From: Anaerolineae bacterium
GTDB taxonomy: Bacteria > Chloroflexota > Anaerolineae > S140-20
Assembly (NCBI GenBank): GCA_027021705.1
Contig: JALUTT010000027.1
Coordinates: forward strand, 1-63,459
Reading direction: 5' to 3'
Length of the DNA: 63,459 nt
Shown: piece after piece, positions 23,951 through 33,971 of the stretch
How the letters are laid out: every line of letters starts with the position of its first letter
Position numbering within the stretch: the stretch's first letter is position 1
The notes under the pieces: generated by a model
The model's database searches: none
Told to the model about the DNA's origin: nothing
What the model saw: only the letters and a program-made list of their open reading frames with translations
Made by a program: the position numbers and the translations under genes

Positions 23951-24493
23951 CTAGCGGCGCAGTGAGTGGCAGCTTAGTGGTGTGGCTGCGATTCCCCAGT
24001 CCTGGAGTTCTTGCACAGCGGCCTCGACCAGTGCGTCGAGCCGGGCAGCGACTATAGGGGAAAGGTCAAGGCCGGGATCCAGCGAGGCGGGTTCCATCCC
24101 CCATAGGACGATGCGGTCGGGGAGGTGGCCCTGGAAGCGGCTCACCGCCAACAGTTCCTGCAGGCCGATCTGGTGCATAGACATCTTGAGGGAGAGCGCC
24201 GCCGGGATCGCCTCGCCTTCCAGCCGTACCAGCGTGCCCGGCGGCTCTCCCGTCTGCACGGCGTCGAGGATGAGCAGGTCGGTGACCCCCTCGAGATAGG
24301 GCAGGAGGTCCAGGCCCATAACGCCACCGTCAATGGCCTGGACCTCCGCCGGCAGACGGTATCGAGCGGTCAGGCACTCCAGGGCCCGGACGCCCAACCC
24401 TTCATCCCGCAGCAGGATGTTGCCCAACCCCAGGATCAGAGTTCGCCGTTGTACGATGCCACGATCAGGCAGGGGACTCCTCCGCACCAGCAC
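23951..24493 (-). CDS. hydrogenase maturation endopeptidase (HyaD/HybD family); exact start uncertain
   Basis: ILGLGNILLRDEGLG, IDGG, LILDAV, SMHQ. Confidence 0.92.
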   Translation of the reverse strand: MLVRRSPLPDRGIVQRRTLILGLGNILLRDEGLGVRALECLTARYRLPAEVQAIDGGVMGLDLLPYLEGVTDLLILDAVQTGEPPGTLVRLEGEAIPAALSLKMSMHQIGLQELLAVSRFQGHLPDRIVLWGMEPASLDPGLDLSPIVAARLDALVEAAVQELQDWGIAATPLSCHSLRR

Positions 24494-25202
24494 TGGTCGG
24501 CGCTGCTTCCTTGACCCTCGACTTCCGCTCGATCCAGTCGGGCTTCTGCTCCAGCGAGATGAACTTGAAGCCGCTGAAGATGCTGGACATCAGCCCGTTG
24601 CCTTCCTCCATATCCACCAGCCAAGCACTGTAGACGTGGTGGATGGCGAAGGCGATGAGCAAGTACATGATCAGGTGGTGGACCAGGCGCACTGTCTGAA
24701 CGCTAACGAGGAGGAAGACCCAGCCAGTCAACGCGCGCCAGATGGAGACGGGATGCAGCCAGCCGTAGAGGGCGAAGCCGGTGAAGACCTGGATGAAGTA
24801 AAGGGTCACGATGATCATATAGGTCATCCCGGCCAGGGCGTTGTGGCCGGCCACCTCGGGGGGTCTCCGACGCAGGAAGAGGTAGTAGCGAATGGCCTCG
24901 ACCATGTTGCGCCGCCCCTCCGCCGTCAGGAAGGGGAAGAGACCCCGCCAACTCGCCCACTCGTTACCCACAAAGGCCCAGTAGGTACGCAGCATCAGAC
25001 TGGCGACGAAGACGAAGGCGACCACCAGGTGGATGTACCGCATCAGCCCCATAAAGTAGGCCCCGTAGGGCTCCCGTGGGCTAATGGCGATGTAGGGGTT
25101 GCTGATGTAGTAGCCTGTGAAGGAGAGAATGACGATGCTGGCCACGTTCACCCAGTGGGTGAGACGGACCGGCACTTCCCAGACGTAGATCCGTCGGCGC
25201 AT
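24465..25202 (-). CDS. Ni/Fe-hydrogenase b-type cytochrome subunit (HyaC/HupC family)
   Basis: YVWEVPVRLTHW, RYIH, GHNALA, RLVHH, IHHVY, SSIFSG. Confidence 0.93.
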   Translation of the reverse strand: MRRRIYVWEVPVRLTHWVNVASIVILSFTGYYISNPYIAISPREPYGAYFMGLMRYIHLVVAFVFVASLMLRTYWAFVGNEWASWRGLFPFLTAEGRRNMVEAIRYYLFLRRRPPEVAGHNALAGMTYMIIVTLYFIQVFTGFALYGWLHPVSIWRALTGWVFLLVSVQTVRLVHHLIMYLLIAFAIHHVYSAWLVDMEEGNGLMSSIFSGFKFISLEQKPDWIERKSRVKEAAPTSAGAEESPA

Positions 25203-25213
25203 ATCCCACCTCC

Positions 25214-26929
25214 TCAGGCTACTTTGACCCGCGTGATCTCGCGCCCATGGCGGTTCACGATGTGCACGGCACAGGCCATGCAGGGGTCAAAGGAGTGAAT
25301 GGTGCGCAGGATCTCCACGGGCCGCTCCGGGTCGGCGACGGGCGTGTCTATCAACGCTGCCTCGTAGGGACCGCGCTGCTCCCGCGCATCCCTGGGCGAT
25401 CCGTTCCAGGTGCTGGGCACTACGGCCTGGTAGTTGACGATCTTTCCACCCTTGATGCGCACCCAGTGACCCAACGCGCCTCGGGGAGCCTCCGTCGAAC
25501 CCCATCCCTCGGCCTCGGCGGGCCAGGTGCTGGGATGCCAGCGCTCTCCATTGTGGATGGCCAGGTCTCCTCGGGAGATGTTGGCGGCCAACTCGTCAAT
25601 CCAGACGCTCAACTGCTCGGCGACCACCAGGGTCTCGATGCCTCGCGCTGCCACCCGCCCCAGGGTCGAGAAGAGGGCTTCCGGCCCGACATCCAGGTGG
25701 TCAAGCACTTGGTGGACCAGCTCGCGCACCCGTTCGTGGCCCGAAGCATAGGCCACCAACATCCGCGCCAGTGGCCCTACCTCCATCGGGGTGTCTTGAT
25801 AGCGAGGAGCCTTGAGCCAGGAGTACTTCTCATCGGTGTTGAGGAACTCGTAGGGCGGCTTGGGGCCGGTGTAGTTGGGCCGGGTCTCCCCCTCCCAGGG
25901 ATGCTTAGCGGTTCCATCTCCCTCGGCATAGCTGTACCAGGAATGGGTGACGTATTCGCGGATCTCCCGGTGGTCCAGGGCCTGGGGCGGATTGCCGATC
26001 TGCTTGTCGAAGATGACGCCCCGGGGCAGCCAAAGGCTGGAGGGGTTCCCGCTGGTGTCCTGGGGATAATCGCCGTAAGCCAGGTAGTTGCCCACGCCGC
26101 CTCCCAGGCCGGCCCACTCCTTGTAGAAGGAGGCGACGGCCAGCAGGTCGGGGATGTAGACCTGGGCGACGAAATCGTGAGCCTGAGCTGCCCAGCGCTT
26201 CAGTTGAGCGATGCGGTGAGCGTTGATAGCGCTCTGGCTGTCGGGGTCTAGAGGCACCGCCATCCCCCCCACCAAGTAAGTCTGCAAGTGGGGGTTCTTG
26301 CCTCCCAGCAGGGCGTGGATCTTGATGATTTCCTTCTGCCAGTCCAGGGCTTCCAGGTAGTGGGCGACGGCCATCAGGTTGGCCGCCGGAGGAAGGGCGT
26401 AGGCTGGGTGGCCCCAGTAGGCGTTGGCGAAGAGGCCCAGCTGCCCCGTCTCGACGAAGGCTTTGAGGCGGTTCTGAACGCCGGCGAAGTAGTCGGCGCT
26501 CGATTTCGGCCAGTCGGAGATGGACTGAGCCAGGTCGGCAGTGTCAGCCGGGTCAGCTTCTAGGGCACTGACGATGTCCACCCAGTCTAGCGCGTGGAGG
26601 TGGTAGAAGTGGATGACGTGGTCCTGAACGTACTGGGCAGCCTCGATAATGTTGCGGATCAAGCGGGCGTTGTCGGGGATCTGAATCTGCAGGGCGTTCT
26701 CAACTGCTCGCACGGAGCAGACGGCATGCACCGTTGTTCAGACGCCTCATATGCGTTGGGCGAAGAGCCAGGCATCGCGGGGGTCACGTCCGCGCAACAC
26801 CAACTCCATCCCCCGGAACATCGTGCTGCTGCTCCAGGCATCCACGACGCGCCCATTCTCCACTTGGACCTCGATGCGTAGATGGCCCTCGATGCGCGTG
26901 ATGGGATCAATCGCGATCTTCTTCGCCAT
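25214..26929 (-). CDS. [NiFe]-hydrogenase large subunit (group-1 type), 571 aa, two in-frame UGA read as Sec61 and Sec64
   Basis: ORFs 26747..26965 and 25214..26731 share one frame. IDPITRIEGHLR...RGRDPRDAWLFAQRI-UGA-GV-UGA-TTVH matches RxCGxC. HFYHLHALDW; C-terminal DPCMACAVH plus 15-aa extension. Confidence 0.9.
26704..26734 (-). promoter_or_regulatory. candidate bacterial SECIS elements: hairpins ACGGU-GCAU-GCCGU (26734-26721) and CUGCUC-CGUGC-GAGCAG (26720-26704)
   Basis: Two adjacent stem-loops just 3' of the UGA codons at 26749-26747 and 26740-26738, each with G in the first two loop positions. Confidence 0.6.
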
Positions 26930-26978
26930 AGGGCTTCCTCCTCTTGCTACGAATTTGCGGATCACGGATCACAGCATC

Positions 26979-27099: not shown

Positions 27100-28224
27100 C
27101 TAGTCGCCGCCGTCGGTCTGGACCGGTGGGCCTTCTTCCTCGTGAGCGGCCAGAGGGTGGCGACGGGCTCGGAAGGCGCTCACCACGCCGTGGGCGGCGA
27201 AGGCGGCCGTGACGCCACCGACGATGCCCAGACCGACCCTGTTGGCCGAGACCTCGACACCAAAGCCCTCGACGTTGGGCAGGCGCTCGTAGAAGGGAGA
27301 CATCGTGTCCCAGAAGCGCGGGGCGAAGCAACCGATGCAACCGTGACCGGCACCGACGGGCCAGTTGGTCCCTTCGTTCCACTGAACGGAAGGGCAGTTG
27401 GAGTAGGTCTGAGGCCCCTTGCATCCCATCTTGTAGAGGCACCAGCCTAGGCGATGGCCTTCGTCTCCCCATTCTTCCACGAAACGGCCGGCGTCGAAAT
27501 GGCCCCGGCGGGGACAGTAGTTGTGGATGATGTGACCGTAGGCGAAGAGAGGACGTCCCATCGAGTCCGTGGCCGGCAGCTCCCCAAAGGTCAGGTAATG
27601 CACGATGACCGCCGTCAGGTTGGCAACGTTCATCGGGCAGCCGGGCATATTGATCAGGTTCTTCAGCCCAGGCACCGCGTCCTTGACGCCCACGGCCCCT
27701 GTGGGGTTCGGTGATGCCGCCGGCCAGCCACCGTCCCAGGCGCAAGCTCCCACAGCGATGGTGACCAAGGCATTGCGGCACACCTCGCGGACGATCTCGA
27801 TGGCGGTACGGCCCCCGATGGTGCAGTAGACCCCACCATCCTTGGTCGGGATCGCGCCCTCGACGATGGCAATGTACTGACCGGGAAACTGCTCTACGGT
27901 GTCCTGGAGCGACTTCTCAGCCATCTGGCCAGCAGGGGCCATAATCGTCTCATGGTAGTTGACCGAGAGCACCTCGAGGACGATGTCAACGACCGTGGGA
28001 TCCGTGGCCCGCAGGAAAGACTCGGTGTTGCCCGCGCAGTCCTGGAACTCCAACCAGACCAGCGGGATCCGGGGAGCGGTGCTCAGGGCTTCAGCGATGC
28101 GTGTGGTGTAACGGGCGGGCAGGGCGAGGGTGGCCGCCATCAGGCCACAGAACCTTAAAAACTGGCGGCGGGTGATGCCGCGTTGGGCCAGATGCCCTTC
28201 GAGACCGGGTGAGGAAGGATCCAT
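27100..28224 (-). CDS. [NiFe]-hydrogenase small subunit, Tat-exported, C-terminal membrane anchor
   Basis: TRRQFLR Tat motif; QDCAGNTES, GACA..GG, PGCP, HNYCPRR, CLYKMGCKGP, NCP...WPVGAGHGCIGC; C-terminal TM. Confidence 0.95.
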   Translation of the reverse strand: MDPSSPGLEGHLAQRGITRRQFLRFCGLMAATLALPARYTTRIAEALSTAPRIPLVWLEFQDCAGNTESFLRATDPTVVDIVLEVLSVNYHETIMAPAGQMAEKSLQDTVEQFPGQYIAIVEGAIPTKDGGVYCTIGGRTAIEIVREVCRNALVTIAVGACAWDGGWPAASPNPTGAVGVKDAVPGLKNLINMPGCPMNVANLTAVIVHYLTFGELPATDSMGRPLFAYGHIIHNYCPRRGHFDAGRFVEEWGDEGHRLGWCLYKMGCKGPQTYSNCPSVQWNEGTNWPVGAGHGCIGCFAPRFWDTMSPFYERLPNVEGFGVEVSANRVGLGIVGGVTAAFAAHGVVSAFRARRHPLAAHEEEGPPVQTDGGD

Positions 28225-28430
28225 AAGCCACCTCCTGTAGTGTAACGCCATGCTGGGAGAGACAAAGGTCCTTACTGCCGATGGAATTGGACAAACCGGG
28301 GGATCGGAAATGACAATGGGGGAAGAGTCACACGCACAACGTAGGATGGGCTTGGAGGCCCCATCTCCTCTCCTTGGCTCCCCCCCTTCCTCCTCTACCC
28401 GATTGGGGGTCGGGTTGTGAGGATAGGTTC

Positions 28431-28479: not shown

Positions 28480-29634
28480 CTAACGCTCCTGAAGGGCTAT
28501 CCGGTAGAGCCGTTGGGTCTCTCGGTCTGGCGGGACCTTGAGCTCCTGCCAGAGGGCATCGGCCAAGCGGCGGTAGTGGGCCACGGCGGTCGCCCGATCG
28601 CCCTGACGTATGGCCAGCCGCATCAGTCGTCGGCCTACCGTCTCCCGGCAGGGATCCATAGCCATCACCCTGAGGTAAAGGCTGATGGCCTCCTGGTCTT
28701 GCTGCTCCTGCTCACACAGACTCCCTAACTCCTCTAGCGCCATCAGGTAGAGCTCTCGCAGCCGTTCCCGCTCCACCCAGCACCAGCGGAGGTCATGGCC
28801 CAGGAGGTCTGCCAGAAAATCCCCCCGGTAGAGGACCAGGGCTTCTCGATAGAGAGCCATCGCTCGACGTGGATTGGACTCCCGCCGGGCCTGCCCCATC
28901 AGGGTCTCGAAGGCAGCCACATCCAACCAGTGACCGGGGCCGTCGTCCAGGTAGTAGCAGTCCCCTTCGTAGCGGATGTAGTGGGAATCGGCCCCTCGCC
29001 GGATAGAAGGCTCCAGGCTCCGGCGCAGGTTGTAGACGGTGGTGTTCAGGTTGCGAAGGGCAGCCGGGTAGTCCAGGTGGGGCCACAACGCCTCGATCAC
29101 CGCATCGCGGTGCACGAGCTGCCCCCGGTGGAGGACCAAAAAGGCCAGCAGTGCCCGTACTTTCGCCCGACGCCAGAGGGGACCATCCACGGTGGACCCG
29201 TCGGCCCGCTGCACTTCCGTCCGCCCTAGGAGACGGATGCGCAGCGAAGGGGGGCAGATCAGCCTCTCCTGAGCCGGTCGGAAGAGGTGCACCAGCGCGG
29301 ACATTTGGTGGCCGTCGGCCTTGGCGGGGACGGCGACGATGCTGACGCTGACCCGCCGGACCGCGCCCGTCCGGCTGTGGATCAGGAGGTCAAAGCAGCG
29401 CACCGGTTTCCGTTGCCGGGCCTGCCCCATGATCGCGCAGCCGACCTTGCAGAGGGGCTTCCCCTCCGAAGTGCGGCCTTTCAGGAGCTCGTGGCAGAGC
29501 TGTCCTACCGCTTCAGACGCGGTATATCCCAGCAGTTCCTCGGCCACCGAATTCCACAGCACGATGCGGTAGTCCGCATCCACGGCCCAGACACCATCCC
29601 CAGTGCATGCGAAGAGACGTGAGATCTCATCCAT
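28480..29634 (-). CDS. PAS + OmpR-type wHTH + BTAD (SARP/AfsR-like) transcriptional regulator
   Basis: PAS: GVWAVD...WNSVAEELLGY; LRIRLLG...ALLAFL...EALWP; LDVAAFE...LYRGDFL...ERERLRELY. Confidence 0.88.
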   Translation of the reverse strand: MDEISRLFACTGDGVWAVDADYRIVLWNSVAEELLGYTASEAVGQLCHELLKGRTSEGKPLCKVGCAIMGQARQRKPVRCFDLLIHSRTGAVRRVSVSIVAVPAKADGHQMSALVHLFRPAQERLICPPSLRIRLLGRTEVQRADGSTVDGPLWRRAKVRALLAFLVLHRGQLVHRDAVIEALWPHLDYPAALRNLNTTVYNLRRSLEPSIRRGADSHYIRYEGDCYYLDDGPGHWLDVAAFETLMGQARRESNPRRAMALYREALVLYRGDFLADLLGHDLRWCWVERERLRELYLMALEELGSLCEQEQQDQEAISLYLRVMAMDPCRETVGRRLMRLAIRQGDRATAVAHYRRLADALWQELKVPPDRETQRLYRIALQER

Positions 29635-33867: not shown

Positions 33868-33875
33868 TCCTGAGG

Positions 33876-33971
33876 CGGGAGTGGATGGGAGTCGAACCCA
33901 CCGTGGCTCGCTCGGTGCGACCCACCAGCGGTTTTGAAGACCGTGGAGCCCACCGGGACTCAACCACTCCC
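33876..33971 (-). tRNA. selC: tRNA-Sec (anticodon UCA)
   Basis: 8-bp acceptor GGGAGTGG/CCACTCCC, 6-bp D-stem with 4-nt loop, CT-TCA-AA loop, long variable arm, 5-bp T-stem with TTCGACT, G discriminator; CCA not encoded. Confidence 0.93.

Follow-up and report, generated by a model that had tools for sequence, protein, structure and literature searches.

The contig JALUTT010000027.1 of the Anaerolineae bacterium assembly GCA_027021705.1, analyzed here over positions 1 to 63,459 (the window; lengths in nucleotides, nt), carries a gene for the large subunit of a Group 1 membrane-bound [NiFe] hydrogenase with two in-frame UGA codons. The two codons most likely encode selenocysteine (Sec, U), which would replace both N-terminal Ni-binding cysteines, so that the CxxC motif becomes UxxU. 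They are followed by two small hairpins. On the comparative evidence, the distal one (hairpin 2) is a genuine bacterial selenocysteine insertion sequence (SECIS) element. The comparison with relatives supports hairpin 2 very strongly. For the proximal hairpin 1 its support is moderate and bound to the lineage; by the same comparison, this hairpin is selected in the UxxU genes of this class only. We lean slightly towards a reading in which hairpin 2, as the one SECIS, serves both UGAs, with hairpin 1 as a helper for the first UGA rather than a second SECIS.

As a SECIS element in bacteria has to follow its UGA at a short distance, two Sec codons nine nucleotides apart are a puzzle. The locus and about 100 relatives form a natural experiment, with genes of the UxxU, CxxU and CxxC types mixed on a single tree. 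A testable answer emerges from comparing them, namely one SelB site together with a meltable helper hairpin. The features concerned are the following:

25214..26929, minus strand: large subunit of the Group 1 membrane-bound [NiFe] hydrogenase (PF00374; translation with TGA read as U)
26750..26752, minus strand: AUA codon (Ile60) directly 5' of UGA1, near-invariant in UxxU genes
26747..26749, minus strand: UGA1 (residue 61), at the first Cys place of the N-terminal CxxC motif
26738..26740, minus strand: UGA2 (residue 64), at the second Cys place of the N-terminal CxxC motif
26721..26734, minus strand: hairpin 1, ACGGU[GCAU]GCCGU, 5 base pairs (bp), -4.6 kcal/mol
26704..26720, minus strand: hairpin 2, CUGCUC[CGUGC]GAGCAG, 6 bp, apical G26713 and U26712, -7.5 kcal/mol

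The hydrogenase gene and its relatives

With TGA read as U, the frame of the large subunit has 571 residues, with U61 and U64 in the motif RIUGVUTTVH. It matches PF00374 over 508/508 profile positions (1.3e-235, 783 bits). The C-terminal motif is of the Cys type (DPCMACAVH) and is followed by a 15-residue tail. The nearest solved relative is 3myr_B (3.8e-223), followed by large subunits of the Hyd-1 type, and the top solved relatives (3myr, 4c3o and 3uqy) are membrane-bound or periplasmic uptake enzymes. The solved large subunits of classical [NiFeSe] enzymes give partial matches only (E ~1e-97). The assignment to Group 1 is given at group level and rests on the N- and C-terminal motifs, the operon partners (a leader-bearing small subunit and a cytochrome b) and the nearest solved relatives. 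The DPUxxC motif of classical [NiFeSe] enzymes is not found here: DPCMACAVH stands in its place, every legible C-terminal motif among the genes of the class is Cys-type, and no legible gene has a C-terminal U. Of the two N-terminal ligands, the first binds Ni only, as a terminal ligand, and the second bridges Ni and Fe (PMC13582414, Discussion). By homology, UGA1 would occupy the terminal Ni ligand place and UGA2 the Ni-Fe bridging place.

For the comparison, genomes of the same class (first 61, later 401) were searched with stop codons read through, and further stretches were fetched; tallies over genomes are samples of the class. A legible N-terminal motif was found in 76 genes of this class. 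Before this count, 14 loci that had been retrieved with a different aim were set aside, together with 5 duplicates and 12 motif-less loci (1 C-terminal fragment and 11 hydrogenases of other groups). These 76 comprise 37 UxxU, 16 CxxU and 23 CxxC genes, and no UxxC gene. Close orthologues were aligned separately as 36 UxxU (A1), 16 CxxU (A2) and 18 CxxC (A3) genes, with 6 rows of at most 58% identity omitted. A quick maximum-likelihood tree was calculated from 71 rows (5 short fragments omitted) after removal of columns 55-85, which hold the motif and the hairpins. The three types are interleaved on this tree, and its well-supported branches force at least nine changes of the UxxU state.

Beyond the class, the best 80 of 633 relatives from named genomes were considered. 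The 79 legible ones are 60 CxxC, 16 UxxU and 3 CxxU, and the UxxU genes among them belong to Chloroflexota (Anaerolineae, Thermoflexus), to 11 Nitrospirota records and to 1 Methylomirabilia record. A pattern scan of metagenomes gave at least 80 stretches. Of these, 73 are distinct and about 70 look like hydrogenases, which adds at least 70 further UxxU stretches. Pooling yielded 114 distinct UxxU sequences. All UGA-bearing frames are otherwise open. Since UxxU and CxxU recur in the class, in named genomes and in metagenomes in such frames, the UGAs are not errors.

Sec decoding is possible in this genome, because it has a tRNA-Sec gene and also encodes SelA, SelB and SelD, the selD gene having an in-frame TGA of its own. 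The tRNA-Sec gene lies about 7 kb from the hydrogenase gene:

33874..33971, minus strand: tRNA-Sec with anticodon UCA (ARAGORN; RF01852, 72.5 bits)

Other matches to RF01852 in the genome are ordinary tRNA-Ser and tRNA-Leu. Judged from the intact frame and this gene set, both UGAs are probably read as Sec. The co-occurrence of SelB was considered as a discriminator between gene types and discarded as uninformative, as SelB is present in 352/401 genomes of the class regardless of type.

Several genomes carry 2-3 hydrogenase paralogues in mixed states, namely G134 (L070/L081/L092), G129 (L058/L085), G262 (L052/L088) and G365 (L053/L090); in G134, for example, two copies are UxxU and the third is CxxC. 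Such sets suggest isoenzymes that depend on selenium. A single gene of a distant hydrogenase subgroup (L030 in G022:C1, large subunit ~46% identical) is also of the UxxU type (RIUGVUPTCH). It has a lone hairpin, GCGCUG[AGUU]CAGCGC, which begins 12 nt after UGA2, with none in between.

Conservation of the two hairpins

Hairpin 1 begins 12 nt past UGA1 and 3 nt past UGA2, and its loop lies 17 nt from UGA1 and 8 nt from UGA2. Hairpin 2 abuts it with zero nt between, and has its loop 23 nt past UGA2 and 32 nt past UGA1. A first-pass annotation, made from the sequence of the window, had described both hairpins, and its sequences, coordinates and distances (17, 23 and 32 nt) are all correct on the minus strand. 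It had also proposed a check with RNAfold. In positions 26760-26680 of the minus strand both hairpins are part of the minimum free energy (MFE) structure (-24.7 kcal/mol), yet the energy of this 81-nt fold is ordinary: z is -0.68, and 45/200 shuffles fold equally well or better. As the fold is no better than that of shuffles, the meaning of the hairpins was settled by comparison with relatives. A search of Rfam with positions 26500-26950 gave 0 families at E <= 10.

Individual hairpins were judged by the four criteria of the bSECISearch consensus model (PMC13188914, Fig. 2 legend). These are a loop of 3-9 nt on an upper stem of 4-16 bp, a G as the first or second loop nucleotide (as a rule with G or U after it), a UGA-to-loop distance of 16-37 nt and an MFE of at most -7.5 kcal/mol, for which each hairpin was folded alone (17 nt for hairpin 2). 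Hairpin 2 passes all of them. It has a 5-nt loop on a 6-bp stem and an apical G, and its distance is suitable for both UGAs (23 and 32 nt). The energy criterion is passed as a borderline case with -7.5 kcal/mol in the window; among the relatives, 27/36 UxxU genes (range -6.6 to -9.0 kcal/mol) and 16/16 CxxU genes reach this value. The G-U is also apical in the shifted register of Nitrospirota-type genes. In these UxxU genes (L123, L125, L126, L132 and L134) the SECIS takes the form CCGCCUC[GGU]GAG(A)GCGG, with a bulged A and the same apical G-U.

Pairing of hairpin 2 depends on the presence of UGA. All of its cells in the alignments are paired in the UxxU (100%, 36 genes) and CxxU (100%, 16 genes) sets, compared with 54.6% in CxxC (18 genes), and the stem is fully paired in 52/52 close UGA-bearing genes. 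Three of its six pairs covary in the UxxU genes (GC19/UA15/AU2, CG19/GC17 and CG29/UA7). Compensation runs through the coupled codons 71 and 75, which occur as TGC..GCA, GCC..GGC, AGC..GCT and GCT..AGC (C..A, A..G, S..A and A..S). The loop is CGUGC in 50/52 and CGUGA in 2/52 UGA-bearing genes and has seven forms in CxxC genes. Only the UGA-bearing genes have fixed codons at S72, V73 and R74, and the lowest synonymous diversity of the whole gene falls on residues 66-75 in UxxU and 68-76 in CxxU genes, but elsewhere in CxxC genes. In phylogenetically independent contrasts, the fully paired hairpin 2 tracks the presence of UGA in 7/7 cases (p = 0.016). The comparison of UGA and Cys homologues that the first-pass annotation had suggested, for covariation and synonymous-site conservation, thus came out clearly for hairpin 2, which covaries, depends on UGA and has decayed in CxxC genes.

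Hairpin 1 gives a more restricted picture. Its cells are paired to 96.1% in UxxU, 68.8% in CxxU and 66.7% in CxxC genes. The pair G26732-C26723 joins the third positions of T66 and A69; it is G-C in 36/36 UxxU genes and is paired in 8/16 CxxU and 6/18 CxxC genes. The two third positions are invariant in 36/36 and 35/36 UxxU genes, respectively, whereas the codon entropies of T66 and A69 are 1.43 and 1.80 bits in CxxU and 1.57 and 1.62 bits in CxxC genes. The mean codon entropy of the gene is similar in all three sets (1.18 bits in UxxU, 1.12 in CxxU and 1.23 in CxxC). Among 175 conserved four- or sixfold degenerate columns of the UxxU genes, only T66 (ACG), A69 (GCC), S72 (TCC) and V73 (GTG) use a single codon. 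There are three such columns in CxxU genes (S72, V73 and R74) and none in CxxC genes. The next pair of hairpin 1 (23-34) is formed in 31/36 UxxU, 3/16 CxxU and 5/18 CxxC genes, and Val70 (GUC) is found in 31/36 UxxU versus 3/16 CxxU genes. The T65 codon is ACG in 13/16 CxxU genes.

As a SECIS, hairpin 1 does not qualify. Its distance is suitable for UGA1 only (17 nt, as against 8 nt from UGA2). The energy criterion is reached by 0/36 close UxxU genes (range -1.4 to -5.2, mean -4.1 kcal/mol). The first-pass annotation had noted a G in the first two loop positions of each hairpin; this holds in the window, but the loop of hairpin 1 is G-first in only 16/36 close UxxU genes, and in the other 20 it is UCAC, UCAU, ACAC or ACAU (N-C-A-Y). 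Its synonymous loop positions vary, with 1.25 bits at V67 and 0.99 bits at H68. In the pooled set of 114 UxxU sequences, the hairpin of the window type is present in 41. A differently registered 5-bp hairpin, CGGUU[CAYGC]AACCG, stands at the same place in 22 (with GTT in 19/22), and a few have other small hairpins there. The covariation and synonymous-site check had been proposed for this hairpin as well; it brought out a third-position pair frozen in UxxU genes only, but one that is bound to the lineage and with contrasts short of significance.

The codon in front of UGA1 is also constrained. It is AUA in 35/36 close and 95/114 pooled UxxU genes and mostly AUC in CxxU and CxxC genes, with an entropy of 0.18 bits in UxxU versus 1.06 in CxxU and 0.99 in CxxC. 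This rare codon may serve as a context signal when the first UGA is recoded. The GUC before UGA2 is likewise tighter in UxxU (0.41 bits) than in CxxU genes (1.20 bits).

Two other structures were examined and rejected. The MFE fold also had a lower stem, GGCGU/ACGCC, which would enclose both hairpins in a Y shape, but the third position of Gly62 varies (C/G/T) without compensation. An alternative hairpin, UGAAC[NACG]GUUCA, with UGA2 in its stem, was considered as a signal for UGA1. It is mostly forced by the coding of U-T-T-V-H, its sole free position is U in 18/36 genes, and its 5' arm would be inside the ribosome during decoding of UGA1.

Decoding of two UGA codons nine nucleotides apart

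Two adjacent hairpins are also found behind the single UGA of selD. In the selD gene of the same genome (G000:C41:5467-6513), the hairpin GGCC[CCCGA]GGCC begins 11 nt past the UGA and is followed by GGCGCAG[GUU]CUGCGCC, with its loop at 33 nt. This layout is kept in 27 genomes of the class (from 30 loci, of which 3 were dropped because the motif search matched elsewhere; 3 extra motif matches were also dropped). Double changes occur at 10/13 pairs, and the covariation score is 0.220 versus 0.112 for shuffles, with 0/500 shuffles reaching it. The proximal helix is paired to 67.9% in one register, some rows using a neighbouring one, and the distal helix to 90.5%. Counted from the UGA of selD and from UGA1, respectively, the distal selD hairpin and hairpin 2 occupy the same columns 36-52, with apical G43 and U44. 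Across the class-wide selD loci (L313-L341) the distal hairpin has the form GCGCAG[GUN]CUGCGC. The likeness of selD to the window lies in the adjacent pair after the UGA, the proximal start at 11-12 nt and a proximal loop that is not G-first; the differences are the single UGA and the distal stem of 7 bp with a 3-nt loop GUN. No description of this selD layout was found in the literature searched. Two further selenoprotein genes of the genome have single elements: fdhA has a long stem with a GGC loop 23 nt past the UGA, and a second Fdh-like gene has GUCGCC[GGUCU]GGCGAC with its loop 18 nt past the UGA.

A sequence of events by which one SECIS could be used twice can be proposed. With UGA1 in the A site, hairpin 1 would stand folded just outside the mRNA channel, 12 nt downstream and abutting hairpin 2; the ribosome occludes about 11 nt of mRNA, as stated in part of PMC4513850. 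The apical G-U of hairpin 2 would then be 34-35 nt away, in a layout and at a distance of the selD type. Three translocations later, hairpin 1 would be pulled in and melted by the ribosome. During decoding of UGA2, hairpin 2 would start 17 nt away, with its loop at 23 nt and its apical G-U at 25-26 nt. A loop distance of 23 nt is also seen in fdhA of the same genome and in the CxxU orthologues without hairpin 1. Hairpin 1 would be a spacer that shortens the effective path to hairpin 2, and/or a pause element while a second SelB complex loads. From this geometry we infer an action through spacing or timing, and hairpin 2 alone would be bound by SelB. Hairpin 1 would be an aid and not a requirement, because about one third of the UxxU genes elsewhere are without such a hairpin. 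Taken as a whole, the proposal is a bipartite two-register SECIS with one SelB-binding hairpin, read at ~34 nt for UGA1 and then at ~25 nt for UGA2, and as its product a Group 1 hydrogenase with Se at the terminal and bridging positions. In this complete form we put it forward tentatively, as a possibility with somewhat more doubt than confidence.

A number of observations weigh against a helper role of hairpin 1. The hairpin is weak (mean -4.1 kcal/mol). In independent contrasts of UxxU genes with the rest, 8 pairs gave ~4.5 concordant, 0 opposite and 3.5 tied cases (median p 0.06), and in those with CxxU genes 7 pairs gave a median p of 0.125, so that significance was not reached. A full hairpin 1 is present in two CxxU genes, in one of them (L082) via a compensatory C-G pair. 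It is also not general, as 36/114 pooled UxxU sequences have a core of at most 3 bp at its place; these core-only types are GCCACC (10), TCCACC (8), GCCCTC (7), GCCATC (5), GCCAAC (3) and GCACAG (3). The third-position G of T66 is kept in 108/114 UxxU sequences even where its pairing partner is lost, and therefore must have a further role besides pairing. Finally, a stretch between UGA2 and hairpin 2 that folds with at most -3 kcal/mol is the rule among the UxxU genes of the class, but it is found in only about half of the UxxU genes from named genomes and metagenomes:

UxxU, this class (n = 36): 89%
UxxU, named genomes (n = 16): 50%
UxxU, metagenomes, among the matches listed (n = 70): 54%
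CxxU, this class (n = 16): 25%
CxxC, this class (n = 18): 11%
CxxC, named genomes (n = 60): 28%

The first-pass annotation had preferred a tandem arrangement, in which UGA1 would be served by a SelB-GTP-Sec-tRNA complex bound to hairpin 1, and UGA2 by another such complex on hairpin 2. The start of hairpin 1, 12 nt past UGA1, is near the 11-nt spacing occluded by the ribosome, its loop distance of 17 nt falls within 16-37 nt, it is constrained only in UGA1-bearing genes, and in the window its loop is G-first. We nevertheless consider such a tandem improbable. The energy of hairpin 1 (-1.4 to -5.2 kcal/mol) never comes to -7.5 kcal/mol, and two of the four bSECIS criteria fail; its loop positions V67 and H68 are free whereas the loop of hairpin 2 is fixed; and in other phyla the UxxU genes either have a different hairpin, whose loop does not begin with G, or have none. 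The proximal hairpin of selD stands behind a single UGA, and a second hairpin therefore need not imply a second UGA. From the tandem proposal it remains that hairpin 2 is a SECIS and that hairpin 1 is conserved together with UGA1, while hairpin 1 falls short in energy and in the loop G. The same annotation was right that hairpin 1, starting only 3 nt after UGA2, is too close to serve this codon. Its alternative, in which hairpin 2 serves both UGAs, fits better than the tandem, and our preferred reading adds hairpin 1 as a helper.

It is also conceivable, though in our view unlikely, that hairpin 2 alone directs both insertions and hairpin 1 has no role in recoding, being conserved for mRNA folding or stability, for codon context after two slow codons, or through a preference at residue 70. 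Both loop distances of hairpin 2 (23 and 32 nt) are within 16-37 nt, about a third or more of the UxxU genes elsewhere are without a comparable hairpin 1, and ACG66 is kept even where it is unable to pair; a single SECIS has also been proposed for Group 4b UXXU enzymes (PMC13582414, Discussion). This would leave unexplained why, in 175 columns, mutually pairing synonymous sites are frozen only in the UxxU genes of the class, and why Val70 (GUC) is preferred in 31/36 UxxU versus 3/16 CxxU genes. The differently registered hairpin at the same place in a second lineage and the covarying proximal hairpin of selD would have no explanation either. It is very improbable that one or both UGAs are not Sec at all, but are read as Cys by a tRNA-ReC-like tRNA or by near-cognate suppression, or that the gene is terminated or defunct. 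According to passages of PMC13582414, tRNA-ReC-like genes are enriched in genomes with Group 4 UXXU enzymes, where UGA is possibly read as Cys. The 56 tRNAs called by ARAGORN in the present genome include two odd, G+C-rich tRNA-like calls (C92 and C99), but these have abnormal anticodon loops (cgaa and gc), and no tRNA-ReC-like tRNA was recognised among the 56 calls. The sole UCA-anticodon tRNA has the form of tRNA-Sec, and there is one ordinary 72-nt tRNA-Cys. More than 100 relatives have intact frames, with the UGA-dependent SECIS conserved alongside, and the operon has a small subunit, a cytochrome b and a protease. SelB is present in 46/49 UGA-form genomes of the class, a tally that includes one unpublished genome (G345), and the remaining three genomes are 87-88% complete.

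Known selenoproteins and genomic surroundings

Hairpin 2 resembles the known bacterial SECIS, with E. coli fdhF as the archetype, in several respects. It is located shortly after the UGA, within the coding sequence, has an apical G-U at loop positions 2-3, a 6-bp upper stem, a 5-nt loop and bSECIS distances, and is lost when the UGA becomes UGC. The window differs in that one element apparently serves two UGAs nine nucleotides apart, and in that a separate small hairpin stands in front instead of the usual continuous lower stem. A close described case is that of the Group 4 UXXU hydrogenases, of which passages of PMC13582414 report Sec in the N-terminal instead of the C-terminal Ni motif, CXXU and UXXU types interleaved with Cys types on the tree, and a downstream SECIS with an apical G, for which the authors suggest one SECIS for both UGAs. 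How two close Sec codons are served was raised as a question for these enzymes in September 2026 (PMC13582414). In contrast to them, the enzyme of the window belongs to Group 1 and is of the membrane-bound or periplasmic uptake type, and no UxxC was found here (0/76). A helper hairpin is not mentioned in sections 18 and 20 of that paper.

In Groups 1 and 3 Sec is C-terminal, the exceptions being sequences of the CXXU type, two in Group 1 and one in Group 3, as described in part of PMC13582414, citing Baltazar 2011. The classical [NiFeSe] enzymes of Group 1a (Desulfomicrobium baculatum and Desulfovibrio vulgaris Hildenborough) share with the window enzyme a Group 1 Ni-Fe site with Se on Ni. They differ in the position of Sec, which takes the place of the first Cys in the C-terminal motif; in the window this motif is all Cys-type. 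Recent reviews place [NiFeSe] enzymes in sulfate reducers and methanogens, and passages of PMC13188914 and PMC9312934 list only the C-terminal UxxC type for hydrogenases. The word "hydrogenase" is absent from the main text of BSepDB (PMC13326102). Nothing was found on Group 1 UxxU hydrogenases or on a two-hairpin bacterial SECIS in the literature, with subscription journals and supplements outside the search. Among publications with both "UXXU" and "hydrogenase", only PMC13582414, judged from the parts cited here, actually concerns hydrogenases, those of Group 4.

The present comparison indicates that N-terminal Sec ligation of the Ni-Fe site, including the bridging position, is a common feature of the Group 1 uptake hydrogenases in several phyla. 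If the proposed reading is true, a two-register SECIS would account for the bacterial decoding of two Sec codons at a spacing of three codons, and Chloroflexota, Nitrospirota and Methylomirabilota would share a widespread, undescribed kind of Group 1 hydrogenase. Such genes are probably mis-annotated on a large scale, because gene callers split them at the UGAs. In Hyd-1 of E. coli, Sec was engineered at each of the four Cys positions with activity retained (Evans 2021, 2024, cited in a passage of PMC13582414). For this reason a natural enzyme with two Se would bear directly on questions of oxygen tolerance and catalysis.

The operon is arranged in the order small subunit, large subunit, cytochrome b and HycI-type protease. 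The partners of the large subunit are:

27100..28251, minus strand: small subunit with a twin-arginine-type leader (RRxF-type; PF14720, PF01058, translation)
24465..25202, minus strand: b-type cytochrome subunit of the hydrogenase (PF01292)
23951..24493, minus strand: HycI-type maturation endopeptidase (PF01750)

Among the tRNA-like calls of the genome, the one on C92 (G000:C92:88682-88779, minus strand) is a 98-nt, G+C-rich 'tRNA-?' of ARAGORN, in which the acceptor stem has 8 bp, the extra arm is long and the anticodon loop has 8 nt. It is tRNA-Sec-like in size but probably a false call. Three tRNA-Trp(CCA) genes are found among the 56 tRNAs, and the contamination estimate of the assembly is 4.5%. 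Directly upstream of the hydrogenase operon and on the same strand lies a gene for a PAS/winged-helix/BTAD regulator (28480-29634, minus strand), which is a candidate regulator.

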